Notes: generated by a model from the letters alone, not told the origin. Counted from the first letter of the stretch, positions 9,367 through 45,785 are shown. The stretch: DNA of 64,000 nt from an uncultured Syntrophobacter sp. (GCA_963663685.2 CAXXDT010000004.1:442-64441), one strand, 5' to 3'. Numbers and translations are program-made.

Positions 9367-11852
9367 ACACGCATCCACGCGGTTTCTTTCCACTGTTGAT
9401 CGTCCTAGCGTTGTGCTGGGACGTCGCGACGTCGCACGCGCAGGATTCGACGAGGACGAGCAAGACCATTGGAGCGGTTCTACGCACGCCGCTGCCGCCG
9501 GAAGAACTCAGCCTCTCCGAGAGCGATTCCGAGCTAGTGATCGTCGGTCCGACGTTCACCTACCGCGTCTCCAAATCGACGGGCGCGATCGCTGCCATCC
9601 ATGTGGTCCGTGAGGGGAAAACGGTCGTCGAGTCGACCGGTCCTGTCGATCTCCAGATCGACCGATACCGATTGGCCTCCGACAAGAACGCCGCAAAGCT
9701 CAGTGTCGTCAGCCAGGGCAAGGACAAGATCGTGCTGAAGGCGGAAGGAACCCTTCATGACCCTGAAAATCGCGGCCCTGATGTGGCTTTCACGGTACAA
9801 CACACGTTCTACAACGATGGCGTCGAAGTCTCCGAGGTCAAGCTGACGCCTCGCGACGACTTGCTGATCGAAAAGTCAATGGTGTTTGGCGTGCTTGCCA
9901 AGGGCCGTTTCGACAGATATCTCCACAAACGACGGGATGAAAACGGGGACAATGCCGTTCGAGGTCGCTTGCCCAACGCGGGCGAATCGGTTCGGCAGTC
10001 CACGCTCACCTCCTGCCTGCAGACGTTCAGTCCGGATGCGGCTATGGCCATTTTCACGGACTCTGGTGCGACGCATTTGAGTCGCAAGGGCCTGGACACC
10101 GCCATGGTCGAAGTCATCGGCCGAGAGAACGGTGCAACGCACCTCGCGCTGGCCCAGTATCTGGTTCACGTGGCCCCGGGCGCCGAGCCGTACCGGTTGC
10201 CGGCCAACAAGACGTTCGCGTTCCGCGTAGGCTTGAGCGTGGCGCCCAACCGGCTGCCGCATCCGCGCACGCACGACCTCCGCATGTTCACCTGGATCGG
10301 CGATGCGAAATATCCCTATCCGACCGACGAAGAGATCGACCAGGTCGCACGGTTGGGCTTCACGCTCTTTCAAATGCACCGAGCCGGCACGCCCGGCGAA
10401 CCGCGTCCACCGGTCGGAGAGATCGATCGCGTTGCAAAGAAGGTCCACGAGACCGGCATGCTCCTCCTCTGGGAAGAGAACCCGGACTTGCTCTATGCCA
10501 ACGCGCCGGGCGTGAAGAAGCTCAAGGCCGAGGGCAAATGGTCGCTCTGGCAGGGTTTCAACTACGGCGGCCGATATACGGCTACGATGGATTCCTACTG
10601 CGATCTGATCGCGACTTGCCTAGCCGCGCCCAACGGGCAGGACGAGTACCGGCTGGCCAACATCCGACGCATGATGGACCAGATTCCGGTGGACGGGCTG
10701 ATGCTCGACGACAATCTCCCCTACGAGAACTGCAAGCTCTGGAAGGAGCATGGGCACCCGAGTCCCGTTTACGACTGCCTGATCGAATTGCACGACATGA
10801 ACTGGCGGCGGCGGGAGCTGATGCGAACCCGGTGTCCGCACCTCGTGTTGGTCAGCCACAATGCCAACGGCTTCATCCTCCCGACCGTTTGCGATTTCGA
10901 CGCCCAGGTTTATGGCGAAGGGCGTTCCTTCGATTCGCTGGAGGGCTACTGGGACGACCATGCCGCCACCGTGATGGTTTTGAACGCACAGGGGATGATC
11001 TGGCCCGGCGATACCGAATCGGTCCGCTGTGCGACCGCCGTTGCGCATAACCAGGACCTATTGACCGGCGGCGGCCAGTATACCCAGATCGATTGGCGCG
11101 TTTTCTCGAAGAAGTTTCCCCATGCCCAAGGGGTGACCGACCGCGAGTTGGCCTACGTCAAGGCCTACAATCCGGCGCAATACTATTTCGGGCTCTACGA
11201 GTCGAAACCGTTCTATTTTGCGACGTCCGCCGGCCTGTTCGGCACGACGACGCCGAAAACTTATGCCAGCGTCTATCACAACCAGGTGTGGAACGATTGC
11301 CTCATTCCGGTTGTCAACATGAGCCCCAAGGCCCAGACCACGTCGCTGGCGATTCGTTCGCCACAAACGATTGGCATTGCGCTGGACAAAGACTATGTGC
11401 TCTTCGACATTCATCGACGCCGTGTTTCCGTTCTGCACGGGGATGGCCTGGGCAAGGGATTTGACAAGATCGCCATCCCCGGCGAGAGCATGGCACTCTT
11501 CTACTTGCGTCAACGGCCGACGGAAACCCCCTATCATCTTTGGGGTGGAAAAAGGATTGCCGAGACTTGGGACGATCAGGCCCGAAAACTCACCGTAACG
11601 ATTCATGGGCCGGCCGGTTTGAAAGAAACCGTGTTCTTCGGCGGGGAGCCGGGCATCGCGAAAGTCACGGTGGCGGGCAAGCCGGCCGAGTTCTCCAGGG
11701 CCCCTGCCAGTCAGCTCGTCCATGGGCAAATTACGTTCGCCGCAACCCCTCTGACGATCGAATTGGTCGCATCGTCGGACGGGCGGAACCTGCTGCCGGA
11801 GAAGGCGGTGGCCGCTGGCCCCGAATTGGGCGACCCTCCTCGGAAGCGTTAG
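9363..11852 (+). CDS. Large secreted uncharacterised protein, paralog of 6880-9366
   Basis: ATGA overlap with the upstream gene; signal peptide ending ATSHA; shared blocks PHPRTHDLRMFTWIGD, LFQxHRAGTPG, DLLTGGGQYT, HLWGGKRI. Confidence 0.7.
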   Translation: MNTHPRGFFPLLIVLALCWDVATSHAQDSTRTSKTIGAVLRTPLPPEELSLSESDSELVIVGPTFTYRVSKSTGAIAAIHVVREGKTVVESTGPVDLQIDRYRLASDKNAAKLSVVSQGKDKIVLKAEGTLHDPENRGPDVAFTVQHTFYNDGVEVSEVKLTPRDDLLIEKSMVFGVLAKGRFDRYLHKRRDENGDNAVRGRLPNAGESVRQSTLTSCLQTFSPDAAMAIFTDSGATHLSRKGLDTAMVEVIGRENGATHLALAQYLVHVAPGAEPYRLPANKTFAFRVGLSVAPNRLPHPRTHDLRMFTWIGDAKYPYPTDEEIDQVARLGFTLFQMHRAGTPGEPRPPVGEIDRVAKKVHETGMLLLWEENPDLLYANAPGVKKLKAEGKWSLWQGFNYGGRYTATMDSYCDLIATCLAAPNGQDEYRLANIRRMMDQIPVDGLMLDDNLPYENCKLWKEHGHPSPVYDCLIELHDMNWRRRELMRTRCPHLVLVSHNANGFILPTVCDFDAQVYGEGRSFDSLEGYWDDHAATVMVLNAQGMIWPGDTESVRCATAVAHNQDLLTGGGQYTQIDWRVFSKKFPHAQGVTDRELAYVKAYNPAQYYFGLYESKPFYFATSAGLFGTTTPKTYASVYHNQVWNDCLIPVVNMSPKAQTTSLAIRSPQTIGIALDKDYVLFDIHRRRVSVLHGDGLGKGFDKIAIPGESMALFYLRQRPTETPYHLWGGKRIAETWDDQARKLTVTIHGPAGLKETVFFGGEPGIAKVTVAGKPAEFSRAPASQLVHGQITFAATPLTIELVASSDGRNLLPEKAVAAGPELGDPPRKR

Positions 11853-11893
11853 TCGCCCATCCGTGCAAAATGGAAAATGTTGGATTGACCTGC

Positions 11894-11941
11894 TTGCAGT
11901 CCGCGTACGATTCTGCTAGAATCCGTTTTGTGCATAATGCA
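11894..11941 (+). promoter_or_regulatory. sigma70 promoter with downstream palindromic operator
   Basis: TTGCAG(11894)-N17-TAGAAT(11917) with TG extension, then TGCATAATGCA at 11931-11941. Confidence 0.65.
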
Positions 11942-23893: not shown

Positions 23894-26545
23894 ATGGACC
23901 AGCTCAACAGGACCTTTCTATACGACAGGCACAAGGCCCTCGGGGCCCAGATGGTGGATTTTTGCGGTTGGGAAATGCCGCTCCAATACCCTTCCCGGGT
24001 CGTGGAGGAACACCTGGCCACGCGCAAGGGCGCGGGGCTCTTCGACGTTTCGCACATGGGCCGGTTCATCATCCGGGGGGCCGGCGCCGTTCCATTCCTC
24101 CAGCACGTGCTCACCAACAACGTCGAGGCGCTCGACCTGAGGCCCACCGGGGCCCAGTACACGATCCTCTCCGATGAAACCGGCAGCGCCGTGGACGATG
24201 CCTATCTTTACCGTTTCGTCGAAGGGGAATACCTCCTGGTGGTCAATGCGGCCAACCGCGAAAAGGACTGGGCACACCTTCAGAAGTATATCACGTTATT
24301 TAAGGAAGTTGAAATGGTCGACCGCACCATGGAGATGTCCATGTTTGCGCTCCAGGGCCCTTTGTCGAGGGGGATACTCGCGGAAATCGTCGAATCCGGC
24401 AGGATGCCCGAACCCATGCGAAACGCTCTGGGCATCGTGACCATGGCCAGCGCCCGGGTGATGACCGGCCGGACCGGGTATACGGGAGAACCGATCTGCT
24501 TTGAACTTTTCCTCGATCGTGCCGACGCTCCGAGGCTGTGGGATCTTCTCATCGCCAAGGGGGCCGTACCCGTGGGGCTGGCGGCCCGGGACACCCTGCG
24601 CCTCGAGGCCTGCCTGCCTCTCTACGGCCACGAATACGGGCCGGACCGGGACGGGAGGAACATCCCCATTTTTGCCGTTCCGCTGGGAAAGACGGGCGTG
24701 AGCTTTTCCCCGCTCAAGGGCGATTTTGTGGGTCGGGAAGCGCTGGCAAAGCAGTTTGCGGCCTTCTCCAGGATTCTCTTCCGGGATTATTCCTTCATCG
24801 GCGACCTCCCCCGGCTGATCCGGCCGGTCGCGGTCACGGGTCGGGGCATCGCCCGGGCGGGCTCCGACGTATTCAAGGACGGCAGGAAGGTCGGCTACGT
24901 AACCAGCGGCACCATGGTCCCCTACTGGGTTTTCGAAGACAGGGGTCTCATCGCCCGGCGCACCGGCGAACATCAACTGCGTTCGATCTGCCTTGCGTAC
25001 CTCGACAGCGACATCGTCGACGAGGACAAGCTCACCATCGATATCCGGGGAAAGGCCGTCGATGCCGTGGCGGTGCCTTACCACCTCCGGTCGGAAGCCC
25101 CTCCGTATGCCCGGCCCATCGTGCGGGACCATGAGGTCGAGGCGAAAACGGCGCCTAAGGCGGCCGCCACCGCCAAGGTATCCCGCCTTCTGGAAAAGAC
25201 TGCGGACAACACGCGCTGGCGGCAGCGGGAATGCATCAACCTGATCCCGTCGGAAATCACCACGTCTCCGATGGTGCGGCTTCTCTCGGTTATGGATCCG
25301 GCCTTCCGCTATGCGGAACACAAGGAAATGAAGGCGTTTTACGAAACGGATGTTTTCTATTACCAGGGAACGGATTTCATTGCTGAAGTGGAATGGCTCC
25401 TGGAAGAGGAAATGCGCAAGTTTCTCGGCTGTTCCGAAGTGGAGATGAGGCTCATAAGCGGGCAGATGGCCAATGCGACGGTTTTCAGCGCCGTGCTCGA
25501 TTATATCAACCGGGCCGATCGCAGGTCGGAACCTCGGCGTATCCGGCGGGTGATGAACCATCACATCGGCAAGGGCGGGCATCTCAGCGCCCAGCCCATG
25601 GGGGCTCTCCGCGATTTCGTCGCCCGCGACCCGCACACGGAACGTCCGGCGGTGGTGAATTTTCCGGTGCTGCCCGAAAACCCATACAAGATCGATGTCC
25701 CCGCGACGCTCGAACTGATCGATACCTACCGCCCGGAGTTGATCATCTTCGGGAAGAGCATGGTCCTGCACAGGGAGCCGGTGGCTGAGGTCCGCCGATA
25801 CCTTGACGCGGCCCACATCGACGCCCTGGTCATGTACGATATGGCGCACGTGCTGGGTCTCATCGGCCCTCACTTTCAGCAGCCCATGGCGGAAGGGGCC
25901 GATCTGGTGACGGGCTCGACCCACAAGACGTTTTTCGGCACTCAGCGGGGGGTTGTGGGGAGCCGCTTCCAGGAACACGAGGAACGATACGAACTCTGGG
26001 AAGCCATTCGGCGCCGTTCGTTCCCCGGAGGTGTGTCCAACCATCATTTGGGCACCCTGCTGGGACTCCTGATGGCCGCCTACGAAATGAATCATTTCAA
26101 GGGAGAATACCAGCCCAGGGTTATCGCCAACGCCAAGGCTTTCGCCCGGGCGCTCAGGGACTGCGGCCTCGATGTGGCCGGCGATCCGGCCATCGATTAC
26201 ACGGAAACCCACCAGGTGGTGGTGCGGGTCGGCTACGGCAGGGGGCCGGACATCGCGCGCCGCCTGGAAGACAACAACATCATATGCAATTTCCAGGCGG
26301 CACCCGATGAGGAAGGATTTACCGCTTCCGGGGCGATCCGGCTGGGGGTATCGGAAATGACCCGCTTCGGGATGGAGGAAGAAGACTTCCGGGGCCTCGC
26401 GCAACTGATGAAGGAAGTGATCGTGAACGGGGCCGACGTCGCGGATCGGGTTAAGGCCTTCCGTGAGCCGTTTTGCGAACTGCGGTTCTGTTTTCGCGGC
26501 GACGAGTTTTCGGGTCTCATGCAAAAACTGCATTCGCTTCTATAG
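23894..26545 (+). CDS. gcvT: Glycine cleavage T protein (aminomethyltransferase) fused to a serine hydroxymethyltransferase domain
   Basis: N-terminal FCGWEMPLQY, GLFDVSHMG, RTGYTGE, GLAARDTLRLEA. C-terminal INLIPSE, GGHLS, YDMAHVLGL, GSTHKTFFGTQRG (PLP Lys), IRLG. Confidence 0.92.
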   Translation: MDQLNRTFLYDRHKALGAQMVDFCGWEMPLQYPSRVVEEHLATRKGAGLFDVSHMGRFIIRGAGAVPFLQHVLTNNVEALDLRPTGAQYTILSDETGSAVDDAYLYRFVEGEYLLVVNAANREKDWAHLQKYITLFKEVEMVDRTMEMSMFALQGPLSRGILAEIVESGRMPEPMRNALGIVTMASARVMTGRTGYTGEPICFELFLDRADAPRLWDLLIAKGAVPVGLAARDTLRLEACLPLYGHEYGPDRDGRNIPIFAVPLGKTGVSFSPLKGDFVGREALAKQFAAFSRILFRDYSFIGDLPRLIRPVAVTGRGIARAGSDVFKDGRKVGYVTSGTMVPYWVFEDRGLIARRTGEHQLRSICLAYLDSDIVDEDKLTIDIRGKAVDAVAVPYHLRSEAPPYARPIVRDHEVEAKTAPKAAATAKVSRLLEKTADNTRWRQRECINLIPSEITTSPMVRLLSVMDPAFRYAEHKEMKAFYETDVFYYQGTDFIAEVEWLLEEEMRKFLGCSEVEMRLISGQMANATVFSAVLDYINRADRRSEPRRIRRVMNHHIGKGGHLSAQPMGALRDFVARDPHTERPAVVNFPVLPENPYKIDVPATLELIDTYRPELIIFGKSMVLHREPVAEVRRYLDAAHIDALVMYDMAHVLGLIGPHFQQPMAEGADLVTGSTHKTFFGTQRGVVGSRFQEHEERYELWEAIRRRSFPGGVSNHHLGTLLGLLMAAYEMNHFKGEYQPRVIANAKAFARALRDCGLDVAGDPAIDYTETHQVVVRVGYGRGPDIARRLEDNNIICNFQAAPDEEGFTASGAIRLGVSEMTRFGMEEEDFRGLAQLMKEVIVNGADVADRVKAFREPFCELRFCFRGDEFSGLMQKLHSLL

Positions 26546-26597: not shown

Positions 26598-27229
26598 GTT
26601 GCGCCGTTGCGTGAGACTTTTCCGGGACTGCACGAAAGACGTAAAACCGGATCATGTCGGCTCACGGTGTTCCGCTGGCAGCGCCTCCTGCGCTTCGCGC
26701 CCGGCTAACGAGTATCCGGGCTACCCGTGGCAAGCCTGCCTGGATTTGCATTGCCCAGGCCATGGATGGCTTTGATTGGTTCGTTGGTTTTTCGTTGCGT
26801 CGTTGCGCCGTTGCGTGAGACTTTTCCGGGACTGCACGAAAGACGTAAAAACGGATCATGGCCGCTTACGGTGTTCCGCTGGCAGCGCCTCCTGCGCTTC
26901 GCGCCCGGCTAACGAGTATCCGGGCTACCCGTGGCAAGCCTGCCTGGATTTGCATTGCCCAGGCCATGGATGGCTTTGATTGGTTCGTTGGTTTTTCGTT
27001 GCGTCGTTGCGCCGTTGCGTGAGACTTTTCCGGGACTGCACGGAAGACGTAAAACCGGATCATGGCGGCTTACGGTGCTCCGGTACCAGCGCCTCCTGCG
27101 CTTCGCGCCCGGCTAACGAGTATCCGGGCTACCCGTGGCAAGCCTGCCTGGATTTGCATTGCCCAGGCCATGGATGGCTTTGATTGGTTCGTTGGTTTTT
27201 CGTTGCGTCGTTGCGCCGTTGCGTGAGAC
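26598..27229. repeat. Tandem array of a 204-bp composite palindromic unit (3.1 copies)
   Basis: GTTGCGCCGTTGCGTGAGAC at 26598, 26802, 27006 and 27210; internal hairpins CCCGG..CCGGG and GCCTGG..CCAGGC. Confidence 0.95.
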
Positions 27230-27256
27230 AGGTTCCAAGTTTTTGAAATCATAAGT

Positions 27257-27293
27257 GAACCCAAGTAACCAAGCAACCCAAATAACCCAAGCC
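27257..27293. repeat. Short degenerate 8-9 bp tandem repeat (AACCCAAGT-like, x4)
   Basis: gAACCCAAGT AACCAAGC AACCCAAAT AACCCAAGC. Confidence 0.55.
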
Positions 27294-27403
27294 GCCATGG
27301 CTGCCATACCCCCCCGCTCGTGCCTTCTCCCGCCCTTCTCATTCCTCACACCTTTCCCGCCTTGCTCCCCTTCAACCGTTCCGGCCCGCTGACTCGTAAA
27401 ATC

Positions 27404-27432
27404 TTCGCACGAACTTCACACGATCTTCACTC
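27404..27432 (+). promoter_or_regulatory. Pho-box-like direct repeats (11-bp period)
   Basis: TTCGCAC(27404), TTCACAC(27415), TTCACTC(27426). TTCACACGAT is identical to the repeat at 48843. Confidence 0.7.
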
Positions 27433-27516
27433 ATGCCTGTCCGTTGTTCGTTACTCTTTCCGTGTAATGAAGTTTACGTCCTGAAATATCGGGCATTTTC
27501 AAGCATGGAGAGTGGC

Positions 27517-30000
27517 ATGAGCAAACTCGAAAAACTGGAACTGTGGGGGCGGCGGCCGTCCGGCGGTGAGGGCCTTTGGGAAAAGCCGCATTCTCTCGGC
27601 GAGATCGTGGAACGGCTCGGGATCGAACCCGCATCCTCGGGCCGGTTCACGGAATCGCTTCCTTTCTCGCTGAACGATACGACGGCGGGTTCCGAAACCG
27701 AACTGCAGGCGGTGGTCATCGGAGACAAAAAGGACACGGACCTGCCCATCACCATCGAACGGTCGAATTATTACGCCAACATCATCCGGCGCGCCGTCGC
27801 CGGAGAAACATCCAAAAGGGTCCTGACCAGGCTGGAATCGTACCTCAACAATAACCCGGACAGAATATGGGAGAACAGTTGGGTGCGCTTCCCCATGAGG
27901 TCGCTGAGCGACTTTGCGGGGCGGGTGTTCGAGCACGACCTGCTTGCCGACAAGAAAGACCCGGAAGGCGGATTGAGGACCGATGCGGACCGTTTCATCT
28001 TCCGCCGGCACGGAGAGAAGTGGATACGGATCCCGGCGAGCTACCTCATCCCTTTGTCGCTTGCCGACGTGCTGGGTTCTCAGGCAGGGATCCCGACGAT
28101 CCTCATGGAAACGGGGCGAAGGCTCCTGGACCATTTTTCGAATGACAACACTTCGCCCGAAACCTTTTCTTTCCACGTGGTGAGGCTTTGCCCCGGATCC
28201 GGCATGGGAAGAGCCGTCGCGAAAGAAACGGCGAAGCGCTTCCTGCTGACGCAACTCCTCGCCATGTACGCCAATTCGGTGTTGAGGCTCCGGGCAAACG
28301 GCCAGCAGGTCGTCATCTATGCCGCCCCTCACCCTCCCGTGCGGCAGCGGGAACTGAACGAGTGCATCTCCGACGCGTTCTACCGGGAGCTTTTCATGAG
28401 TCCGTGCCTTTCGGGGTGGGACGAAGGCGAGAAGAAGCACGGATACATGTGTCTGTGCCACCAGGTGCTGAGCCGCAGCCAGATGAACGCCGTGGCCAAG
28501 CTCCGGGAAGCGGGCATCATCACGAGGGATCTGGTGATTCTGCCGAACATGTCCAATATCAGCCTCGCCAACAACGGCACTCACCTGAGCCTTGGCAGCA
28601 TCCGGCTGTCGCGGTGCCTCGGCGACAAGTCCTCGGGTGTGACGGGCCGGGACGAGAAGCTTCTGGGCGACCTCGTCATCAAGATCGTGGAACACTTTCT
28701 GCCGCTTTTTGTCGGGACGTACAGCGCGGCCCCTTACCGGCTCGATTTTCGGGATTTCCACCCCGAAAGCGTGCTCGGTTTCCTCCCTCACGAACTCGAT
28801 TACACGCACCTCAGGATGATATGGCGCCGATGGAAGAACAAGGCGGATTTGAAGATCTTCGGTCATTCCATGACCCCGTTCGGCCCGGAATGGTTCGACC
28901 GGACCTTCGGCGTGCTTTTCGGACTGAAGGGCGATTTCGTGCCGGATTTCCGGCTGATCGACTACTTCGCGGCGCTCATGAGCACGGACCGGAGCCCCGG
29001 GTTGGACGGCAGTATCGGCAACGGCGACCGCCTGAAGCAGGACCTTTCGGAACTGGGAGTGTTCGACCGGAAGATGTCCCTGTACCTGCTCTACAGGCTC
29101 AGGGAATTCGGAACGATGGGATTCAGCGGTTTTGAAGGAAGACATTATAGCCTTTTCGAAAGCCTGACGGACGACATGGGCCGTGCGGCGGACCTCCAGA
29201 CCCTCGTGACCGCCCTCGCTTTCAAATACATCGCCCGTGGAGAAATCACTCACGCCCACATCCCCGACGCTCCGTCCATTGAAAGTGAACGAAGACAAAT
29301 CTTCTTCGGTGCGGCCATCGGAATCCCCACCTTTTTCATTCGAAAAGACACCTCGAACGTTTTGCTCCGCAAGATCGTGAGGCGCTGCGACAAAGTGCGC
29401 CAGAGCGGGCGTTACCCCGGATACCTTCGTGTCTGCAATCAGGAATACCGGAAGGCGCTCGTGGAGATTCTGCACGACGACGCGGGCGATCTCATTGAGA
29501 TGCTCGGCCTCGGAAAAACGATGGAAGACCTGGCCCTGAGGCTCGATCGTCCGGAGGAACATTCCGCCGTCGGGAAGCTGACACATTCCATACTGGACAG
29601 AGTGAACGCTCATTCCCCCATGAAGGTCCGCGGCAGGGAATTCAACCAGGCCGCCGAAATGCATTACCGGACGGCCCTGCGGCGCAGGCACATGGAAGAG
29701 GCTTTCGATTTCCTGGAAAAAGACGCCGCCTGCATGTTCGGCCCCGGTTCGACGGGGACGGGCGGAGGCTTTCGGGAGGCGCTCCATTTTGCCCTGAAGG
29801 AGCGTGGAGTGCTGGAATTCCTGCTTGCCGTCAGGGATGACGTGCTGGAAGAAACCGCATCGCCGGAGGAACTGAAAGCGCTCATCGACATCGTTTTGCT
29901 CACCGTGCGTCATGACATGGACCTCTCGGAGAAAACCTCGGATGAAATCGCCCCGGATGACAAGGACCGCACATCAGTATATCGAGCGGTACACGCGTAG
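27517..30000 (+). CDS. Uncharacterised 827-aa protein, putative glutamine synthetase/glutamate-cysteine ligase-fold carboxylate-amine ligase
   Basis: GGAGAG SD. Ordered motifs TAGSETELQ (GxExE), SPETF, NNGTHLS (GxH), YRLRE/GFEGRH (ExR) resemble GS/GCL/PafA catalytic motifs. Fold is inferred. Confidence 0.65.
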   Translation: MSKLEKLELWGRRPSGGEGLWEKPHSLGEIVERLGIEPASSGRFTESLPFSLNDTTAGSETELQAVVIGDKKDTDLPITIERSNYYANIIRRAVAGETSKRVLTRLESYLNNNPDRIWENSWVRFPMRSLSDFAGRVFEHDLLADKKDPEGGLRTDADRFIFRRHGEKWIRIPASYLIPLSLADVLGSQAGIPTILMETGRRLLDHFSNDNTSPETFSFHVVRLCPGSGMGRAVAKETAKRFLLTQLLAMYANSVLRLRANGQQVVIYAAPHPPVRQRELNECISDAFYRELFMSPCLSGWDEGEKKHGYMCLCHQVLSRSQMNAVAKLREAGIITRDLVILPNMSNISLANNGTHLSLGSIRLSRCLGDKSSGVTGRDEKLLGDLVIKIVEHFLPLFVGTYSAAPYRLDFRDFHPESVLGFLPHELDYTHLRMIWRRWKNKADLKIFGHSMTPFGPEWFDRTFGVLFGLKGDFVPDFRLIDYFAALMSTDRSPGLDGSIGNGDRLKQDLSELGVFDRKMSLYLLYRLREFGTMGFSGFEGRHYSLFESLTDDMGRAADLQTLVTALAFKYIARGEITHAHIPDAPSIESERRQIFFGAAIGIPTFFIRKDTSNVLLRKIVRRCDKVRQSGRYPGYLRVCNQEYRKALVEILHDDAGDLIEMLGLGKTMEDLALRLDRPEEHSAVGKLTHSILDRVNAHSPMKVRGREFNQAAEMHYRTALRRRHMEEAFDFLEKDAACMFGPGSTGTGGGFREALHFALKERGVLEFLLAVRDDVLEETASPEELKALIDIVLLTVRHDMDLSEKTSDEIAPDDKDRTSVYRAVHA

Positions 30001-30997
30001 GGTCCTGACCGAAAAGCTCTACGGCGACGGGATCGTGGACTTCCTGTATTCGGACCTCAGGGAAAACCCTTCCTGGCTCTTCAGGGCGCTCACCGGCCCC
30101 CGGGTGTCGAGCCTTATCGGATTCATCAGCTACGACACGATACTCGGTCAAAGAATAACCGGAAACCTGTCTTTTCTCCGCGCCTGCGGAGTCGACTTCG
30201 GCGAATGCCTGGACGCTCCGGGGCAACTGGGGACCGTTCGGGAAATTTTCGAGCGCAAAATTCGCTACCGGCAGTGCAGGCCGATGCCCGACGACCCGGA
30301 CGCGGTGGTTGCTCCGGCGGACTCGCGGGTCGTGGTGGGTTCTCTTGCCGAGACTTCAGGGCTCTTCCTCAAGGGGAAGTTCTTCGATTGCGGGGAAATC
30401 CTCGGGAGCGGGAAAAAGAACTGGCTGCCGGAATTCCACGACGGGGACTACGCCATCTTCCGGCTGACTCCCGACAAGTACCATTACAACCATGTGCCGG
30501 TCTCGGGGAGAGTCGAGGATTTTTATGAAATTCCAGGTGATTATCATTCGTGCAATCCCGGTGCCGTGGTGGCCATGGTGACTCCCTATTCCAAAAACAA
30601 ACGCTGGGTCACCATCATCGATACGGAGGTGCCCGGCGGGACCGGGGTCGGCCTGGTCGCGATGATCGAAGTCGCGGCCCTGATGATCGGGGAGGTCGTG
30701 CAGCTCTACAGCGAACGGGAATACGACGACCCGAAGCCGGTCGTGCGGGGTATGTTCCTGGAAAAAGGCTCCCCGAAAAGTCTTTTCCGGCCGGGGAGCA
30801 GCACGGACGTTCTGCTCTTCCAGAGGGACCGTGTGGTCTTCGCGGACGACATCGTCATGAACATGAACACCACCGGGGCCGCAAGCCGCTTTTCCCTGGG
30901 GTTCGGAAGGCCCCTGGTGGAAACGGAAGTCCGCGTCCGGTCCTTCCTCGCGGCGGGCCGGCCCAGGGGGGCGGAAGAAAATCGAAGGGAGTCCTGA
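29957..30997 (+). CDS. Phosphatidylserine decarboxylase-family pyruvoyl enzyme
   Basis: VVAPADSR, IFRLTPDKYHYNHVPVSG, NKRWV, cleavage motif RPGSSTDVLLF; overlaps the upstream gene. Confidence 0.9.
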   Translation: MTRTAHQYIERYTRRVLTEKLYGDGIVDFLYSDLRENPSWLFRALTGPRVSSLIGFISYDTILGQRITGNLSFLRACGVDFGECLDAPGQLGTVREIFERKIRYRQCRPMPDDPDAVVAPADSRVVVGSLAETSGLFLKGKFFDCGEILGSGKKNWLPEFHDGDYAIFRLTPDKYHYNHVPVSGRVEDFYEIPGDYHSCNPGAVVAMVTPYSKNKRWVTIIDTEVPGGTGVGLVAMIEVAALMIGEVVQLYSEREYDDPKPVVRGMFLEKGSPKSLFRPGSSTDVLLFQRDRVVFADDIVMNMNTTGAASRFSLGFGRPLVETEVRVRSFLAAGRPRGAEENRRES

Positions 30998-31001
30998 TCT
31001 T

Positions 31002-32057
31002 ATGGTGAATACGCTGTTCCTGCTGGTATCGGGCGCCGGATTCGGACTGCTGTTGTTCTGGGGCTTCAAGACTCTGCCGGGCGAAAAGTGGCAGATTCTT
31101 GCCGCCGTGCCCGTGGACAGGGACGAATCGGGCCGCTGGAGGGGTGTCAACCTGACGTACTACGGTCTGCTGACGGCTTTGGCTCATGCCGTCGCAGTGG
31201 CGTTCCTGATCATTCTGCTGGGGTCCCTTTCCGTGTCCCTGGCCGGCATTCTGGCGGTGGCCGGTGTACTTCTGTCCTTGTGCGTGCCCGCCGCGGCACT
31301 GATCGCACGGGCCGTGGAAAAAAAACCGTGTACATTCACGGTGGGCGGAGCCGCTCTCGTGGGGTTCGTGATCGCGCCATGGGTGCTCGAAGGCATGAAC
31401 CTTGTCTCCGGGGATGCCGCCGGCCTTCATGTTCCCGTCATTCCGGCCCTGGCCGCGCTGTCCGTATCCTACGCATTCGGAGAAGGGACCGGGCGCCTTG
31501 CGTGTATCAGCTTCGGCTGCTGCTACGGGAAGCTCCTGTCGGAGAGCCGGCCGCTCGTGCGCCGGCTCTTCGAGAACCGGAGTTTCATTTTCTTCGGCAA
31601 GACCAGGAAAATTGCCTATGCAAGCGGGATGGACGGCAAAAAAGTCATCCCGGTCCAGGCGATCACCTCGGTGCTGTTCATTGGGGCCGGGCTCGTGGGA
31701 ACCCTTCTCTTCCTGCAATCGAGGTTCGTTGCGGCCCTCCTGTTCACCGTCCTGGTAACTCAGGGCTGGAGGGCCTTCTCGGAAACGCTCCGGGCGGATT
31801 ACCGGGGTGAAGGGCGCCTCAGCGCCTACCAGTTTATGGCACTGTCCTCGGCGGTCTACGTGGCTGCTCTGCCCTTCCTGCTGCCTTTGGCTCCTTCCCC
31901 CGTCGTTCCCGACCTGACGGCCGGCCTGGCGCTGATCTGGGCTCCCGAGCCTCTCCTGGCCATACAGGTGTTGGCCTTCCTTGTCTTCATCCACACCGGC
32001 CGCAGCATGGTCACGGGATCGATGCTCTCGTTCCACGTGATCAAGGAGAGAATCTGA
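31002..32057 (+). CDS. Prolipoprotein diacylglyceryl transferase (Lgt)-family membrane protein, divergent
   Basis: Multi-TM; TYYGLL, GRLACISFGCCYG (Lgt signature variant), IPVQAIT, WRAFSETLRAD. Confidence 0.82.
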   Translation: MVNTLFLLVSGAGFGLLLFWGFKTLPGEKWQILAAVPVDRDESGRWRGVNLTYYGLLTALAHAVAVAFLIILLGSLSVSLAGILAVAGVLLSLCVPAAALIARAVEKKPCTFTVGGAALVGFVIAPWVLEGMNLVSGDAAGLHVPVIPALAALSVSYAFGEGTGRLACISFGCCYGKLLSESRPLVRRLFENRSFIFFGKTRKIAYASGMDGKKVIPVQAITSVLFIGAGLVGTLLFLQSRFVAALLFTVLVTQGWRAFSETLRADYRGEGRLSAYQFMALSSAVYVAALPFLLPLAPSPVVPDLTAGLALIWAPEPLLAIQVLAFLVFIHTGRSMVTGSMLSFHVIKERI

Positions 32058-32142
32058 TGCGGTCGGATTCCGTCGATTGTGGGCTTGGGGGCTCAGACTC
32101 GGCGCTGCGCGGGATGTTGGGTTGATCGAAGCGATTCCCCTT

Positions 32143-33005
32143 ATGTGCAGTCACGGAAAAATCTCACGCAACGGCGCAACGACGCAACGAAAAACGACCC
32201 TGAGATGCCAGCGAAGCGAAGCCGGGGCGGCTTGGCCACCCGAGAGATCTCCTGAATGGTAAAGGCCGAAACCAGCCTCACGCAACGGCGCAACGACGCA
32301 ACGAAAAACGCCCCTGAGGTGTTGTGAAGGGAAACGGGACCGGCTTGGCCCGCCCGGACGGGTGGCCCGGACAACTCGTTTGTCCGGGCGCGAAGCGCGG
32401 GAGGAAGGCGATAATCCATTGCTGCTGCGAGGGTCGACGAGATTGATGACACCAGGCCGCCCCTCCTGTCCTGACGGACCCGGACAACGAGTTGTCCGGG
32501 CCACCCGAGAGATCTCCTGAATGGTAAGGGCCGAAACCAGCCTCACGCAACGGCGCAACGACGCAACGAAAAACGACCCTGAGATGCCAGCGAAGCGAAG
32601 CCGGGGCGGCTTGGCCACCCGAGAGATCTCCTGAATGGTAAAGGCCGAAACCAGCCTCACGCAACGGTGCAACGACGCAACGAAAAACGACCCTGAGATG
32701 TTGTGAAGGGAAACGGGACCGGCTTGGCCCGCCCGGACGGGTGGCCCGGACAACTCGTTTGTCCGGGCGCGAAGCGCGGGAGGAAGGCGATAATCCATTG
32801 CTGCTGCGAGGGTCGACGAGATTGATGACACCAGGCCGCCCCTCCTGTCCTGACGGACCCGGACAACTCGTTTGTCCGGGCGCGAAGCGCAGGAGGGGGG
32901 GGCAATGGAAAGCCGTGAGTGGGGATGATCAGTTTTTCCCCCTTTCGTGCAGCCACGGAGAAATCTCACGCAACGGCGCAACGACGCAACGAAAAACGAA
33001 AAAGA
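32143..33005. repeat. Composite repeat array, reverse-complement relative of the 26.6-27.2 kb array; includes a 379-bp tandem duplication
   Basis: CTCACGCAACGG(C/T)GCAACGACGCAACGAAAAACG at 32163, 32277, 32542, 32656 and 32965; hairpin CCCGGACAACTCGTTTGTCCGGG repeated. Confidence 0.92.
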
Positions 33006-33830: not shown

Positions 33831-33848
33831 GTAACAATGTCGTAACAC
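33831..33848 (+). promoter_or_regulatory. Pho-box-like direct repeat upstream of phoB
   Basis: GTAACA(33831)-N5-GTAACA(33842), 11-bp period. Confidence 0.65.
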
Positions 33849-33911: not shown

Positions 33912-34595
33912 ATGCAAAGGACACGCGTTCTTATCGTCGAAGATGATTCCGATATCCTGAATCTGCTGTCCTACAACGTTCAAGCGGCGGGCTTCGATGT
34001 CGTAACCGCAGTGGATGGAAACGCTGCACTGGCGATGGTCAGGCAGCATTCGCCGGACCTCGTCCTGCTGGATCTCATGATTCCGGGCATCGACGGATTT
34101 GAAGTGTGCAGGGAACTGAAACGGGGCTTGGAAACGAGGAACATCCCCGTGATCATGCTGACCGCCAGGGGGGAGGAAGTGGACCGCATCGTGGGCCTGG
34201 AACTCGGGGCGGACGATTACGTGGTAAAGCCTTTCAGCCCGCGGGAACTGATTCTGAGGATTCGTGCGGTTCTTCGCAGGTCGGCACCGGAAGCCATGGT
34301 CGAATCGGTCTGGCAGAACGAAGACCTGCGAGTGGATTTCGACGGCCACAAGCTTTCAGTGGACGGTGAAGACGTGCCTCTCACGGCGACCGAGTTCAAG
34401 CTCCTGTCGGAACTGATCCGCAATCCGGGTAAGGTCCAGACACGGGATCAGCTGTTGGACCGGGTGTGGGCCTACCAGTTCGACGGCTATGCCCGTACGG
34501 TCGATACTCACGTTCGCCGGCTGCGACAGAAGCTGGGGCGGTATTCGGAATGGGTTGAAACCGTTCGCGGCGTGGGCTATCGCTTCCGGGGCTGA
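33912..34595 (+). CDS. phoB: OmpR/PhoB-family response regulator, probably PhoB
   Basis: LIVEDD, LLDLMIPGIDG, MLTA, GADDYVVKPFS, RTVDTHVRRLRQKL, TVRGVGY; followed by pstB. Confidence 0.85.
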   Translation: MQRTRVLIVEDDSDILNLLSYNVQAAGFDVVTAVDGNAALAMVRQHSPDLVLLDLMIPGIDGFEVCRELKRGLETRNIPVIMLTARGEEVDRIVGLELGADDYVVKPFSPRELILRIRAVLRRSAPEAMVESVWQNEDLRVDFDGHKLSVDGEDVPLTATEFKLLSELIRNPGKVQTRDQLLDRVWAYQFDGYARTVDTHVRRLRQKLGRYSEWVETVRGVGYRFRG

Positions 34596-39958: not shown

Positions 39959-40291
39959 ATGAATTGCGAGTGTGAAATGGGGTCGGACAAAACGCCGGGA
40001 ACGACAGGCGGTGGTCCCGGGCCAGAATTACGCTGTCCCGTTTGCTGTTCTCATGCGCTGCATGAACTGGGCGCTCCCGAAGGTTCGAAACGACGGTATG
40101 TATGTGTCGTGTGCGGCAGGCGTTTCACCCTGGGGACGGTAGAGAAAGACGAAGAGCTGAAGCCGGTGTGTCCCGAATGCGGAAGTGCGATGGAGCCATT
40201 CCGGGGATATCCGAAAGAGGCCAGGTTCAGGTGTTCCATGTACCCCTTGTGCGGCACCTATCTGAAAGCCCCTCAGGGAAGGGATTCGTAA
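39959..40291 (+). CDS. Small double zinc-ribbon protein
   Basis: CPVC...CVVC and CPECGSAM...RCSMYPLC (topoisomerase C4-type); TAATG coupling to the next gene. Start uncertain. Confidence 0.6.
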   Translation: MNCECEMGSDKTPGTTGGGPGPELRCPVCCSHALHELGAPEGSKRRYVCVVCGRRFTLGTVEKDEELKPVCPECGSAMEPFRGYPKEARFRCSMYPLCGTYLKAPQGRDS

Positions 40292-40983
40292 TGCAGTCAT
40301 TCAGCCTGAACGAAGACATGATACTGAACATCCTCCAGAACGCCAGACCCTACGGACATCATGAGGATGCACAGCGCCTGAATCTCGGATTCGGATTTAT
40401 CTACTACGGACTGGCGAGGGTGTTGAGGCCGAAGCATGTCGCCGTGATCGGCTCAGGCTTCGGTTTCAGCGTAATATGCCTGGCCCTGGGATTGAAAGAC
40501 AACGGAGAGGGGCAGGTCAGTTTCGTGGACCCGTCCTACTCGCTGCTGCGAAACGGTCCCTTCAAAACCATCGGAGGCACGGACAACTGGAACGAACCGA
40601 CCAGGGTCCAGGAGCATTTCGAGTCCTTCGGCGTCGGCAACCTGGTCACCCATTTCAAGATGACCAGTGAGGTGTTCTTTAACCAGTTCGAGGGTCTCGA
40701 TCTTCCGGACGTGGACATCGCCTTTATCGACGGCAACCATTCCTATAAGAATGCCAGAAACGACTTCATCGGTGTCCTCGGACATTCGCAAAAGAACTCC
40801 TACATATTTCTTCATGATTCCAACATCTATATTCGCGAAATGATTCGCCATGCCGGCGTCAAGCGATGGATGAACGTTTTGAAGACCAGGAGCGACCTCT
40901 TCGAACTGATCGATTTTCCGTTTGATTCCGGTGTAGCCCTCGTTCGCGTCACCCGGGATGACGCGTGGAAGCACATGGCATGA
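40291..40983 (+). CDS. Class I SAM-dependent methyltransferase (Methyltransf_24-like)
   Basis: VIGSGFGFS, SFVDP, DIAFIDGNHSY, FLHDS. Confidence 0.88.
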   Translation: MQSFSLNEDMILNILQNARPYGHHEDAQRLNLGFGFIYYGLARVLRPKHVAVIGSGFGFSVICLALGLKDNGEGQVSFVDPSYSLLRNGPFKTIGGTDNWNEPTRVQEHFESFGVGNLVTHFKMTSEVFFNQFEGLDLPDVDIAFIDGNHSYKNARNDFIGVLGHSQKNSYIFLHDSNIYIREMIRHAGVKRWMNVLKTRSDLFELIDFPFDSGVALVRVTRDDAWKHMA

Positions 40984-41666
40984 ATTACCTGTTGTCGGCC
41001 CTGGCCCTGTTTCTCATCCTTGCGGTTTTGTACTGGCGTTTCATCTGGTTCTTCAGAAACCCTCCCCGGCGCTGTCCCTTGGGGGAAAACCTGGTGAGTC
41101 CCGCGGACGGGAGGGTCGTCTATGTCGAAAAGGTACGGAGCGGCAGTGAGGTGTTCTCCATCAAAAAAGGGGTGTCGGCAAGGCTGGAGGACATCACCAG
41201 GGAAGACCTGGGCAAGGAAAAGATACTCATCGGCATCTTCATGAGCCCTTTCAACGTGCACTACAACAGGGCGCCCCTGTCGGGAACCGTCGAACTCATA
41301 AGGCACTATCCGCCGACAGGCAAGAATCTCAACATGGCTTCAATGCATTTCAGGGCCGTCTTCAGGATTCCTCCCTATTACAAAAACAGCCTTCACATCG
41401 TCCGGAACGAACGCACCGTCACCAAGATTCAGGGATGTTTCAGAAACGCCTCCATCCCCTGCTACATCGTACAGATTGCGGGAAGAACCGTTCGCGCCAT
41501 CGTGTCCTTTTACCGGGAAGGGGCGAATGTCGGCAAAGGGGACGTTTTCGGCATGGTTCGAATAGGGTCCCAGGTTGACATCGTGGTGCCGTTCCTGGAC
41601 GGAATGCGATTGAAGGTCAAGGCCGGCGACAAAGTCCGCGCCGGTCAGACGATCCTCCTGGAATGA
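40980..41666 (+). CDS. Short-type phosphatidylserine decarboxylase-family protein
   Basis: ATGA overlap; N-terminal TM; WFFRNP, VSPADGRV, IFMSPFNVHYNRAP, NERT, QIAG, RIGSQVD cleavage motif. Confidence 0.9.
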   Translation: MNYLLSALALFLILAVLYWRFIWFFRNPPRRCPLGENLVSPADGRVVYVEKVRSGSEVFSIKKGVSARLEDITREDLGKEKILIGIFMSPFNVHYNRAPLSGTVELIRHYPPTGKNLNMASMHFRAVFRIPPYYKNSLHIVRNERTVTKIQGCFRNASIPCYIVQIAGRTVRAIVSFYREGANVGKGDVFGMVRIGSQVDIVVPFLDGMRLKVKAGDKVRAGQTILLE

Positions 41667-41876
41667 CGGGACCCATGATTTTCCCTCGAGGATTCATGCA
41701 GAAGCATATGGCACAAAGAATATCAGGGGCCTTTATTTCCGGAATTCACTTCCACCTGCGTGTTTTTCCCTCTTTCCCCGAACTTCCTCTCCCGGCCTCG
41801 GGCGTCACTCAACCGTTGCCACGTAATTTCTTCCTCAACACTCCGAATATCGGAATTTGCCAGAACAGGAGCAGTT

Positions 41877-44348
41877 ATGGACGTTAAGACCACCAGGGTT
41901 GATCTTCATCTTCATTCAAAGTTTTCCATACGGCCGTCACAGTGGATCCTCCAGAAGATCGGTTGCCCCGAAAGCTTTGTGGACCCGATGGAACTCTACG
42001 GTCTCGCAAAGCAAAAGGGTATGTCGCTGGTCACCATCACGGATCACAACACCATTGCCGGATGCCTGGAAATTTCCCATCTTCCCGGCACGTTCATCAG
42101 CGAAGAGGTGACGACCTACTTCCCCGACGATAAATGCAAAATCCATGTGCTCGCCCACAACATCGATGAAAATGCCCATGTGGAAATTCAAAAGGTGCGG
42201 GAAAACATTTTCGACCTCGTTGCGTACCTGTCCGGGGCGGGCATCTATCACGCGCTGGCGCATCCTTTGTTTTCTCTCAACGATAAACTGACGATGGACC
42301 ATTTCGAAAAGCTCCTCCTGCTCTTCAGAAACTTCGAACTGAACGGCACGAGGGATGTCCTGCAGAACCAGTGCCTGAGACTCATCCTGTCGAGCCTTGA
42401 GCCCGCGACCTTCCAATTCCTGTCGGAAAAGCACGGCATTGAGCCGCATTTCCCGGAACCGTGGGAAAAGCGGCTCATCGGTGGCTCGGACGATCACAGT
42501 TCGCTGAACGTCGCGTGTACGTACACGGAAGTACAGGGGGAATTTCTCGACCCGGAAGCCTTCCTGGCCGCACTGGAGAAGGCCCCCACGGTCATCGGCC
42601 AGGGTTCCGGCCCCCAGGTCCTCGCGCACAACCTGTACGCCATCGCGTACCAGTTCTACAAAAAGAAGTTCAACCTCGAACGCTACGCCGGAAAAGACGT
42701 TCTCCTGCGGGTCCTCGACCGGTTCCTTCAGCCGAATACGGCGGCCGAAGCGGGCATAATCTCGAAGCTGCACGTCTTCTGGAACCGCCGGAGGCGTTCA
42801 GGGGCCGGGAGCCGCTCTTCCGCGGATATCAAGGACCTGTTTCGCCGTGAAGCCCTGCGGCTCATCACGGACAACCCGGAACTCATGCGCTTCGTCGAAA
42901 GCTCAAACCCGGTGCCGCAGGATTTGGAAATAAAATGGTTCGAATTCGTCAACGAAGTCTCGAACAAGGTGCTGCTTCACTTTGCAAACCACCTTCTGGA
43001 CCATCTCTCCGGCGCCAATGTCTTCAATATTTTCCATTCGATCGGTTCGGCCGGAGGGCTCTATTCCCTGTTGGCCCCCTATTTCGTGTCTTACTCCATC
43101 TTTGCCCGGGAAAAGGCGTTCAGCCGGGAAGCCCTTGAATGGTTCGGAGCGCGAAAACCGCAGGACGATCCGCTCAAACGGGTGAAAGTGGCCCACTTCA
43201 CCGATACGTTCCATGAAATCAACGGAGTCGCCACCACGCTTCAGCAGCAGATCAGCGCGGCCATGAAAACGAGGCGGGAACTGGTCGTTATCACCTGCGC
43301 CGAAAGGGACGATTCCGGATTCAAGGGCGTCCGGAACTTCCTGCCCGTAGGGGTTTACGAGTTGCCCGAGTACCCCGAACAGAAGCTCTGCTATCCGCCG
43401 TTCCTGGAAATGCTGAGCTACTGCTACGAGAACGGATTCACCCATATCCACTCCGCCACCCCCGGCCCCATCGGACTCGCCGCCCTGGCCATCGCCCGCA
43501 TTCTCAAGCTGCCCCTTTACGGGACCTACCACACCGCCCTGCCGCAGTACGCCCAGTGCCTGACCGACGACACGGCCATTGGAGAACTGGTGTGGCGGTA
43601 CACCCTCTGGTACTACGACCAGATGGACAGGATTTTCGCGCCGTCACGGAGCACCGCGAACGAACTGATCCAAAAAGGCATCTCAAAAGAAAAGGTCCGG
43701 CTTTTCGCACGCGGGATCGATATCGAACGGTTCCATCCCCTGAAGCGCAGCCGCACCCTCGAAAACCGGTTCCATCTGAACGGCGGCGGCACCCGGCTCC
43801 TTTACGTGGGCCGCATATCCAGGGAAAAGGACCTCCCCGTTCTCGAAGCCGCGTTCCGGTCCCTGGTTGCGGCCGTGGGGCAGAGGGTCCACCTGGTGGT
43901 GGTGGGCGACGGCCCATACCTTGAGGAGATGCGGGAGAACATGAAGGACATGCCCTGCTGCTTCACCGGGTACCTGGAAGGGGAAGATCTGAGTGGCGTT
44001 TATGCGTCCTGCGATTTGTTTGTTTTTCCCAGCACCACCGACACGTTCGGCAACGTCGTTCTTGAAGCACAGGCATCCGGGCTGCCCGTTGTCGTGACCG
44101 ATTCCGGAGGTCCCCAGGAAAACCTCCTGCCCGGAGAAACCGGTGTGATCGTCGATGGAAGCAGCGTTCAGTCTCTTTTCGAAGCCTTGAGAAACCTCGT
44201 CAGGAACCCGGATCGCCTGAGGGAAATGGGGAAAAGGGCACGGCGGTACTCCGAGGAACGGTCCTTTGAAGACGCCTTCGAAACGAGCTGGACGATGTAC
44301 CGCGATGAGGCGGAGCCGGCCGGAGTGGTTTTGGACCGTGTAATCTGA
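41877..44348 (+). CDS. PHP phosphoesterase domain fused to a GT4 glycosyltransferase
   Basis: N-terminal DLHLHS, ITDHN, AHP, GGSDDH. C-terminal TDTFHEINGVA, IHSATPGP, YHT, RGID, YVGRISREK, FPSTTDTFGNVVLEAQASGLPV. Confidence 0.92.
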   Translation: MDVKTTRVDLHLHSKFSIRPSQWILQKIGCPESFVDPMELYGLAKQKGMSLVTITDHNTIAGCLEISHLPGTFISEEVTTYFPDDKCKIHVLAHNIDENAHVEIQKVRENIFDLVAYLSGAGIYHALAHPLFSLNDKLTMDHFEKLLLLFRNFELNGTRDVLQNQCLRLILSSLEPATFQFLSEKHGIEPHFPEPWEKRLIGGSDDHSSLNVACTYTEVQGEFLDPEAFLAALEKAPTVIGQGSGPQVLAHNLYAIAYQFYKKKFNLERYAGKDVLLRVLDRFLQPNTAAEAGIISKLHVFWNRRRRSGAGSRSSADIKDLFRREALRLITDNPELMRFVESSNPVPQDLEIKWFEFVNEVSNKVLLHFANHLLDHLSGANVFNIFHSIGSAGGLYSLLAPYFVSYSIFAREKAFSREALEWFGARKPQDDPLKRVKVAHFTDTFHEINGVATTLQQQISAAMKTRRELVVITCAERDDSGFKGVRNFLPVGVYELPEYPEQKLCYPPFLEMLSYCYENGFTHIHSATPGPIGLAALAIARILKLPLYGTYHTALPQYAQCLTDDTAIGELVWRYTLWYYDQMDRIFAPSRSTANELIQKGISKEKVRLFARGIDIERFHPLKRSRTLENRFHLNGGGTRLLYVGRISREKDLPVLEAAFRSLVAAVGQRVHLVVVGDGPYLEEMRENMKDMPCCFTGYLEGEDLSGVYASCDLFVFPSTTDTFGNVVLEAQASGLPVVVTDSGGPQENLLPGETGVIVDGSSVQSLFEALRNLVRNPDRLREMGKRARRYSEERSFEDAFETSWTMYRDEAEPAGVVLDRVI

Positions 44349-45746: not shown

Positions 45747-45785
45747 TTCACCCAATCTCTACGCGCCTGTAACAAGGTTGTAACG
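45747..45785 (+). promoter_or_regulatory. Pho-box-like repeats upstream of pstS
   Basis: TTCACC(45747), GTAACA(45769), GTAACG(45780) on an 11-bp register. Confidence 0.65.

Follow-up and report, generated by a model that had tools for sequence, protein, structure and literature searches.

Among the known phosphate-sparing systems, the PlcP-Agt glycolipids, the OlsBA/OlsF ornithine lipids, the BtaAB betaine lipid and the SqdBDC sulfolipid follow the same physiological logic as the three-gene operon described here, which lies on a 64,000-nucleotide stretch of DNA of an uncultured Syntrophobacter sp. (GCA_963663685.2, CAXXDT010000004.1:442-64441; the whole stretch is here referred to as the window). 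A further replacement was described from the lipid alone. At phosphate concentrations of 1.5 uM or less, Desulfatibacillum alkenivorans PF2803T replaced phosphatidylethanolamine (PE), phosphatidylglycerol (PG) and cardiolipin almost completely by glucuronosyl glycerolipids and by sulfur-containing aminolipids of a new class (Ding et al. 2024, PNAS, PMC11181052). For this class the tentative name N-butyramide cysteine glycerols (BACys) was chosen, and it was found at low phosphate only. It yielded a head-group ion of m/z 205.064 (C7H13O3N2S+) and was built on the same diacylglycerol, acyl-ether glycerol and diether glycerol cores as the phospholipids, and no genes were proposed for its formation (PMC11181052). 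In the literature searched, we found no further paper mentioning BACys or assigning genes to these lipids.

The operon of the Syntrophobacter-like window, on the other hand, is known here from its genes alone. It encodes a ligase-like protein (gene 1), a decarboxylase of the Psd family (gene 2) and a membrane protein with the fold of Lgt (gene 3), together here named the trio. Our analysis was carried out entirely in silico, and the folds, the motifs, the conservation, the gene neighbourhood and the presence of the trio in the BACys producer were observed. On these grounds we lean, if slightly, towards the trio being a phosphate-starvation-linked operon for a phosphorus-free thioether aminolipid, most likely BACys. 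The genomic company of the trio (phoBR, pst, phoH, an OlsF-like gene and a GT4 glycosyltransferase) likens it to the Pho-regulated replacement systems. In contrast to these, its enzymes are unrelated to the known ones, a thioether would link the head group to the lipid core and the diradylglyceryl moiety would come from PG itself. Lipid replacement under phosphate starvation and all three enzyme superfamilies are known; their combination and the chemistry are new.

The trio and the BACys lipids

The window corresponds to contig C4 of a 4.2-Mb, 86%-complete assembly. The operon and the array in front of it comprise the following features:

27404 to 27432, plus strand: heptamer array before gene 1, consisting of TTCGCAC (27404), TTCACAC (27415) and TTCACTC (27426), 11 bp apart
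27517 to 30000, plus strand: gene 1, 827 amino acids; open reading frame (ORF) 27433 to 30000 with the likely start ATG at 27517 behind GGAGAG
29942 to 30997, plus strand: gene 2, long-form Psd-family pyruvoyl decarboxylase; start uncertain (ATG at 29912, 29942 or 29957)
31002 to 32057, plus strand: gene 3, Lgt-fold membrane protein of 351 amino acids; start behind AAGGGAG

Depending on the choice of its start, gene 2 overlaps gene 1 by 44 to 89 nt, and gene 3 begins 4 nt past the stop of gene 2. The three genes are one coupled unit behind the heptamer array. A preliminary description of this DNA had seen here three overlapping or abutting genes behind an 11-bp-periodic TTCACAC array, and the coordinates of this arrangement were confirmed.

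The full trio was present in the BACys producer. In D. alkenivorans DSM 16219 (locus L152) gene 1 (5869-8352) encodes a protein of 827 amino acids, is overlapped by a Psd-type gene 2 (8294-9328) and is followed by an Lgt-like gene 3 (9350-10426), which scored 31.8 bits against the Lgt family PF01790. The same genome carried an orthologue (49% identity, 895 bits) of a fusion of a PHP phosphoesterase and a GT4 glycosyltransferase, here named PHP-GT4. This fusion is encoded in the window at 41760-44348 (plus strand, 862 amino acids), upstream of phoH-pstSCA, and is a candidate synthase of the glucuronosyl glycerolipids formed under phosphate limitation. An OlsF-type gene was not found in D. alkenivorans. 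Two candidate gene sets, the trio and PHP-GT4, therefore match the two lipid classes which this organism forms under phosphate limitation. This two-for-two match, together with the predicted cytoplasmic orientation of the Lgt-like protein (see below), is the reason why we lean towards BACys.

The head group of BACys is most simply gamma-Glu-Cys minus CO2. Removal of CO2 from gamma-Glu-Cys (C8H14N2O5S) leaves C7H14N2O3S, and for its cation lacking the hydrogen of the thiol an m/z of 205.0641 is calculated. The producer carries the trio, and the cores of the lipid are those of PE and PG. A phosphorus-free aminolipid, thioether- or ether-linked, with a small amino-acyl head group, a PG-derived diacylglyceryl moiety and one decarboxylation had already been proposed for the trio in the preliminary description. 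With the match to the BACys class and the trio in its producer, this proposal gained computational support.

The three encoded proteins

Gene 1 was not assigned to any described family by its sequence. Pfam and NCBIfam contained no family matching at an E value of 0.01 or better, the PDB sequences yielded nothing, even when a profile built from 36 relatives was used and E values up to 10 were admitted, and the ESM Atlas returned clusters of 'hypothetical protein' only. The family comprises more than 2900 clusters at 90% identity, all of them unnamed, and 759 representatives at 50% identity; the closest relative, with 79% amino-acid identity, was found in an uncultured Syntrophobacter genome. 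The protein contains TAGSETELQ, LANNGTHLSLGS and GFSGFEGR, so that the motifs GSETE, NGTH and FEGR noticed earlier are all present and in order. Their succession as an E-x-E strand, an N-G-T-H loop and an E-G-R strand is conserved and is the usual order of the glutamine synthetase (GS)/glutamate-cysteine ligase (GCL) family. Among 36 full-length relatives the residues E60, E62, H356, E540 and R542 were invariant or nearly so.

The AlphaFold 2 (AF2) model of gene 1 reached a predicted local distance difference test score (pLDDT) of 90.8 and a predicted template modelling score of 0.92. VIA-align placed it closest to GshF (Z 16.0, 394 residues aligned), YbdK (15.3), GshA (14.9-15.0), Dop (14.4) and PafA (14.1), followed by plant and yeast GCL (Z 10-12) and the glutamine synthetases (7-9), with unrelated rows at 4 or below. 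The top matches of Foldseek were the same ligase families, with a probability of about 1. The modelled fold places gene 1 among the carboxylate-amine ligases of the GCL/GS superfamily, in agreement with the GS/GCL fold that had been expected for the 827-aa protein.

In characterised members of this superfamily (GCL, GS, PafA), the gamma-carboxyl of a glutamate is activated by conversion to an acyl phosphate. By analogy, gene 1 is proposed to form a gamma-glutamyl-cysteine bond, the same bond as in GshA, the N-domain of GshF and YbdK/GCS2, with which it shares the fold (Z 14-16) and the order of the motifs. It differs from these enzymes by the lack of detectable sequence membership in Pfam, NCBIfam and PDB, by an additional 300-450 residues or so in inserted and C-terminal helical parts and by its location in a lipid operon instead of the glutathione pathway. 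No other GCL gene (PF04262, PF04107) was found in this 86%-complete assembly. A paralogous relationship of gene 1 to the 862-aa ORF at 41760-44348 was considered and rejected, that ORF being the PHP-GT4 fusion.

Gene 2 matched PF02666 with 131.1 bits (E 5e-38; cutoff 22 bits). With Psd (PF02666; E. coli 6L06/7CNW) it shares the family, the G-S-S self-cleavage site and the aligned Asp and His residues. The GSST motif, which had been recognised before, lies within RPGSSTDV, and the PAD and YHxxH segments align with the matching motifs of the beta chain of E. coli Psd. D122, H176, H179, G280, S281 and S282 were invariant in 13 orthologues, and because of this set of Asp, His and G-S-S residues gene 2 should, judging by its sequence, self-process to a pyruvoyl enzyme.

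In other respects gene 2 departs from Psd. It lacks a pssA partner, scores far below every NCBIfam Psd equivalog cutoff (best NF001941, 121 against 371 bits) and is one of three Psd-family genes in the genome. The second is psd, which adjoins pssA as a housekeeping pair on contig C14, and the third a short form at 40965-41666 of the window. No pssA was found within the 64-kb window, as the preliminary description had stated; the CDP-alcohol phosphatidyltransferase genes of this genome lie on contigs C10 and C14. With such a clear canonical counterpart elsewhere in the genome, gene 2 was rejected as the housekeeping psd. By analogy with Psd it is proposed to remove an alpha-carboxyl, although from a lipid-linked gamma-glutamyl residue and not from phosphatidylserine (PS). 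A complex prediction for genes 2 and 3 (score 0.00, mark 0.32) counts neither way.

The family of gene 2 also bears on an isomeric route to the same elemental formula, C7H14N2O3S. Here the Lgt-like protein would alkylate free cysteine, the Psd-like enzyme would decarboxylate S-diradylglyceryl-cysteine and the ligase would cap the amine, resulting in a gamma-Glu-cysteamine thioether lipid. S-diradylglyceryl-cysteine mimics PS more closely than a gamma-glutamyl lipid does and would suit a Psd-family enzyme, and GCL-type ligases take cysteine-like amines. However, the ligase would then have to act on a lipid substrate, and no membrane segment was predicted in the gene 1 protein. We regard this route as decidedly unlikely and would rather have the decarboxylase act on the gamma-glutamyl residue, as proposed for BACys above.

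Gene 3 contains GRLACISFGCCYG, WRAFSETLR, TVGG and IPVQAIT, all as listed in the preliminary description. Its sequence score against PF01790 was 16.7 bits (E 0.0048), under the cutoff of 24.9 bits; the orthologues scored 24-40 bits, most of them over the cutoff, including the one of D. alkenivorans. Searching the PDB with a profile of 15 gene 3 orthologues (hmmsearch) did not find Lgt, the only rows being chance matches to HisF (E 0.09). With hhalign, gene 3 matched the alignment of canonical Lgt proteins weakly (E 0.0084, probability 4.8), the motifs being aligned as expected. The AF2 model (pLDDT 84.4) matched E. coli Lgt 5azc_A with Z 12.9 and a root-mean-square deviation of 4.0 over 234 of 284 residues, the next row scoring 6.7, and the top match of Foldseek was 5azb with a probability of 1.00. 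Nine helices were predicted, with an extra one at each end compared to Lgt.

For the comparison of single residues, E. coli Lgt was numbered from the alignment of the PDB chain (offset 1) and positions were taken from family and profile-profile alignments. Y26, R143, G154, R239 and E243 of Lgt correspond to Y54, R165, G176, R257 and E261 of gene 3, which were invariant in 15 orthologues; the counterpart of R246 was likewise kept and invariant. The five first-named residues of Lgt are reportedly essential. With Lgt (E. coli 5AZB/5AZC; PF01790) gene 3 thus has in common the fold and the counterparts of these six residues, and like Lgt it is proposed to alkylate a cysteine thiol with PG as the donor, glycerol phosphate being released. 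In contrast to Lgt, gene 3 is a second, accessory copy with extra terminal helices and H103, N146 and E151 replaced, it is predicted to be inverted, and its proposed acceptor is a small molecule of the cytoplasm and not a lipobox protein. A canonical lgt (261 bits) lies on contig C14, and gene 3 was accordingly rejected as the housekeeping lgt. Both a separate canonical lgt and a pssA-psd pair, a point raised in the preliminary description, are therefore present in the genome.

The predicted inversion is derived from the distribution of lysine and arginine. The mean number of K+R per loop in the 15 gene 3 orthologues was 3.1, 0.1, 2.9, 0.6, 7.1, 0.5, 2.9, 0.7 and 2.9, respectively. The K/R-rich loops are the equivalents of the periplasmic H103 loop (2.9), the head domain (7.1) and loop 6 (2.9) of Lgt, whereas the loops equivalent to cytoplasmic loops of Lgt carried 0.1-0.6; the canonical Lgt alignment showed the reverse pattern. 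Because of this reversed bias and the positive-inside rule, the topology of gene 3 is predicted to be inverted, with the catalytic face on the cytoplasmic side. By analogy with Lgt, we propose gene 3 to be a PG-dependent diradylglyceryl transferase acting on a cytoplasmic cysteine thiol.

Conservation, neighbourhood and promoter arrays

In total, more than 500 relatives of gene 1 were obtained from three scans of species-representative genomes. The fetched loci were reduced to 136 unique ones, 113 of which have at least 2.3 kb downstream. Among the latter, gene 2 was present in 109 and genes 2 and 3 followed in order in 104. Five of the apparent exceptions were searched genome-wide, and all five have gene 3 elsewhere in the genome; in Citrifermentans bremense the same contig carries it a few kb farther downstream. 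Of 301 genomes sampled evenly from the phylum, 33 have gene 1, 33 have gene 3 and 32 have both, close to each other on one contig. The two remaining of the 34 carriers, with either gene 1 or gene 3, are fragmented assemblies. Carriers include Syntrophobacterales, Syntrophales, Geobacterales, Desulfobacterales, Desulfomonile and Brocadia, and furthermore NC10, SAR324, Acidobacteriota and some Gammaproteobacteria.

Among the 136 loci, the flanking DNA contained PhoB-like genes in 29, PHP-GT4 in 24, phoH in 13 and pst genes in 10-12. In Syntrophus buswellii DM-2 (L104, about 8315-11934) a phoB-like response-regulator gene was located between genes 2 and 3, and in a Trichlorobacter genome (L105, L159) the PHP-GT4 gene took this place. 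The conservation of the trio and its linkage to pho and pst genes, which the preliminary description had put forward for a survey, were hence found: the order is kept across phyla, near pho, pst and phoH. In the window the neighbours of the trio are phoB, a gene of a pstB-like ABC ATPase, the PHP-GT4 fusion, phoH, pstSCA and the OlsF-like gene. Three further features are relevant here:

33912 to 34595, plus strand: PhoB-type response regulator (PF00072 and PF00486), 1.85 kb downstream of the trio; associated regulator candidate
48843 to 48882, plus strand: heptamer array before the OlsF-like gene, consisting of TTCACAC, TTCACAC, TTCATAA and GTCACCG in 11-bp phase
48988 to 50838, plus strand: OlsF-like ornithine-lipid gene with the domains PF13444 and PF19576

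The recurrent neighbourhood bears on a different explanation, in which the trio modifies a protein or peptide in a lipoprotein-like manner, or makes a soluble metabolite, and the phosphate genes are incidental. PafA and Dop, which have the same fold as gene 1, act on proteins, and to our knowledge the only substrates of Lgt are lipobox proteins. However, none of the 136 loci contained a conserved peptide gene accompanying the trio, and gene 3 is predicted to turn its catalytic face to the cytoplasm and not to the side of the exported lipoproteins; the latter argues against the lipoprotein modification which the preliminary description had offered as its alternative. Additionally, a canonical lgt was present in 21 of 21 related genomes examined, with an extra lgt-like copy in only 8 of them. 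An incidental neighbourhood is itself unlikely, as pho, pst, phoH and PHP-GT4 neighbours recur. Taken together, we consider this explanation highly improbable.

The array before gene 1 sits 85-113 nt ahead of the start of the gene. Scanning the 4.2-Mb assembly for three in-phase heptamers yielded 6 sites over the threshold, compared to 0-2 in shuffled genomes, and the arrays before gene 1 and the OlsF-like gene had the two top scores (16.5 each). The bare heptamer was not enriched in the window (11 found, 6.8 expected). Comparable phased TTCAC-like repeats were present ahead of gene 1 in the relatives L008, L009, L013, L014 and L015. The array before gene 1 is a candidate site for an activator of the PhoB/PhoP type, and the matching arrays suggest, at the level of sequence, that gene 1 and the OlsF-like gene are co-regulated. 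The earlier statements that the array resembles the one before the OlsF-like gene and that phoB is about 2 kb away agree with the sister array at 48843 and with the PhoB-type gene listed above. A sigma-70 consensus promoter was not found in a scan of 27200-32400.

A second type of repeat, GTAACA-N5-GTAACA in direct orientation and 11-bp phase, was found at 33831-33847 before phoB and at 45769-45785 before pstS. In the relative L009 TTCACAC-type and GTAACA-type repeats were mixed in a single array. The two types may represent one degenerate Pho box or two regulators.

Upstream of the operon, an ORF of 883 amino acids (23894-26545, plus strand) encodes a GcvT aminomethyltransferase (PF01571, PF08669) fused to a serine hydroxymethyltransferase (SHMT) domain (PF00464), an unusual pairing of two folate enzymes in one chain. 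It was rejected as a member of the operon because it is this GcvT-SHMT fusion and because a repeat array lies between it and gene 1. This array (26598-27229; 204-bp unit, 3.1 copies, 97% matches) and a second one downstream (32163-32881; 379-bp unit, 1.9 copies) flank the operon as tandem repeats in mutually inverted orientation. A core of about 45 nt of the repeat unit recurs dozens of times across the assembly, and the flanking arrays therefore belong to a dispersed repeat family and are not specific to the operon.

Two further observations concern other parts of the window. Just upstream of the PHP-GT4 fusion, at 40102-41666 (plus strand), a methyltransferase-like ORF of 293 amino acids overlaps the short-form Psd-family gene, which encodes 233 amino acids. 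The OlsF-like gene shares its last nucleotides with a gene at 50774-51652 (plus strand) whose product belongs to the L-2-amino-thiazoline-4-carboxylate hydrolase family (PF14196). This family is linked to cysteine formation and may bear on the cysteine supply for the lipid.

Proposed pathway and its meaning

We infer the substrates, the order of the steps, the thioether link and the phosphate control. In the mechanism put forward here, an inverted Lgt homologue would lipidate a small cytoplasmic thiol (gamma-Glu-Cys or Cys) using PG and, with the ligase and the decarboxylase, turn phospholipid into BACys while freeing glycerol phosphate. We offer it tentatively, giving it not quite an even chance of being correct. 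Expression of the trio would probably be driven by a PhoB/PhoP-type activator on the phased heptamers. Gene 1 would, in an ATP-dependent reaction, join the gamma-carboxyl of glutamate to the amine of cysteine, or alternatively gamma-glutamylate an S-alkylated cysteine. At the cytoplasmic face, gene 3 would transfer the diradylglyceryl moiety from PG to the sulfur of cysteine and set glycerol phosphate free, by which the phosphorus would become recoverable. The steps of gene 1 and gene 3 could take place in either order. Gene 2 would act on the lipid-linked gamma-glutamyl residue: a Schiff base would be formed with its free alpha-amine, and its alpha-carboxyl would be removed. The end product would be a 4-aminobutanoyl ('butyramide') amide on S-diradylglyceryl-cysteine.

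Several points speak against this pathway or against BACys as its product. Of the residues of Lgt, gene 3 lacks H103, in place of which V, L, T, I or C is found, as well as N146 and E151. N146 is replaced by the invariant C168 and E151 by the invariant C173, and C174 is a third invariant cysteine. These three lie within the GRLACISFGCCYG region, were conserved in 15 of 15 gene 3 orthologues and might bind a metal, act as a redox switch or provide a catalytic thiol. Because of the missing residues and the invariant cysteines in their place, the chemistry of gene 3 may differ from the diacylglyceryl transfer of Lgt. Glutamate and cysteine as substrates of gene 1 are assumed from the habit of the family. 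On the side of the lipid, the structure of BACys is tentative and was derived from tandem mass spectrometry (MS2) only (PMC11181052), and we infer both that the link is a thioether and which carboxyl is lost; the isomer gamma-Glu-cysteamine fits the same formula equally. D. alkenivorans is the only known BACys producer, and the phyletic link between trio and BACys thus hangs on a single organism. For the lineage of the window the function of the trio is deduced from sequence and predicted structure.

The phosphate control has its own difficulties. Induction of the trio by phosphate limitation would, indirectly, be in line with the appearance of BACys in D. alkenivorans at low phosphate only. 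The boxes of pstS and phoB are of the GTAACA type, unlike the TTCACAC of gene 1 and the OlsF-like gene. When the two types were combined in a degenerate pattern, [GT]T[AC]AC-N6-[GT]T[AC]AC, it was not enriched genome-wide (53 sites, compared to 80-94 in shuffles). Its other intergenic matches precede unrelated genes, namely those of a sulfotransferase, an HMA protein, an HD protein and an inositol-1-phosphate synthase. No defined Pho box is therefore claimed, and control of gene 1 by PhoB is putative only.

Some of these points would also fit a remodelling of lipids under phosphate stress with a product other than BACys. The trio might, for example, amidate or decarboxylate PS, PE or a glucuronosyl lipid, with the Lgt-like protein acting as a scaffold, a flippase-like partner or another transferase. 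The loss of H103, N146 and E151 together with the cluster of C168, C173 and C174, the occasional insertion of PHP-GT4 between genes 2 and 3 (L105, L159) and a link to BACys made of one organism and a formula are in line with this. On the other hand, the chemistries of the three families jointly give the exact head group of BACys and its PG-like cores, and for the one studied carrier no other unexplained lipid of phosphate limitation has been reported. We therefore judge a different product to be unlikely, though deserving of some weight, and keep to the formation of BACys.

The trio is the best available candidate for BACys biosynthesis and a candidate for an undescribed, widely distributed three-enzyme pathway. 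If this is true, lipid head groups would be attached, and membrane phosphorus recycled, by a route not described before. More than 500 species-level genomes of anaerobes would carry the pathway, including Desulfobacterota, Acidobacteriota, the anammox Brocadia, NC10, SAR324 and others. It would add the first non-protein substrate of an Lgt-type enzyme and would give a function to a large unnamed family of ligases (more than 2900 clusters at 90% identity). The genes would serve as a genetic marker for anaerobes that swap phosphorus for sulfur and nitrogen in their membranes, be it in sediments, peat, aquifers or oxygen-minimum zones, and as a source for interpreting sulfur-containing aminolipids in environmental lipidomes. 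For the near-total replacement of phospholipids by BACys in a phosphate-starved sulfate reducer, the operon provides a concrete candidate of three genes.

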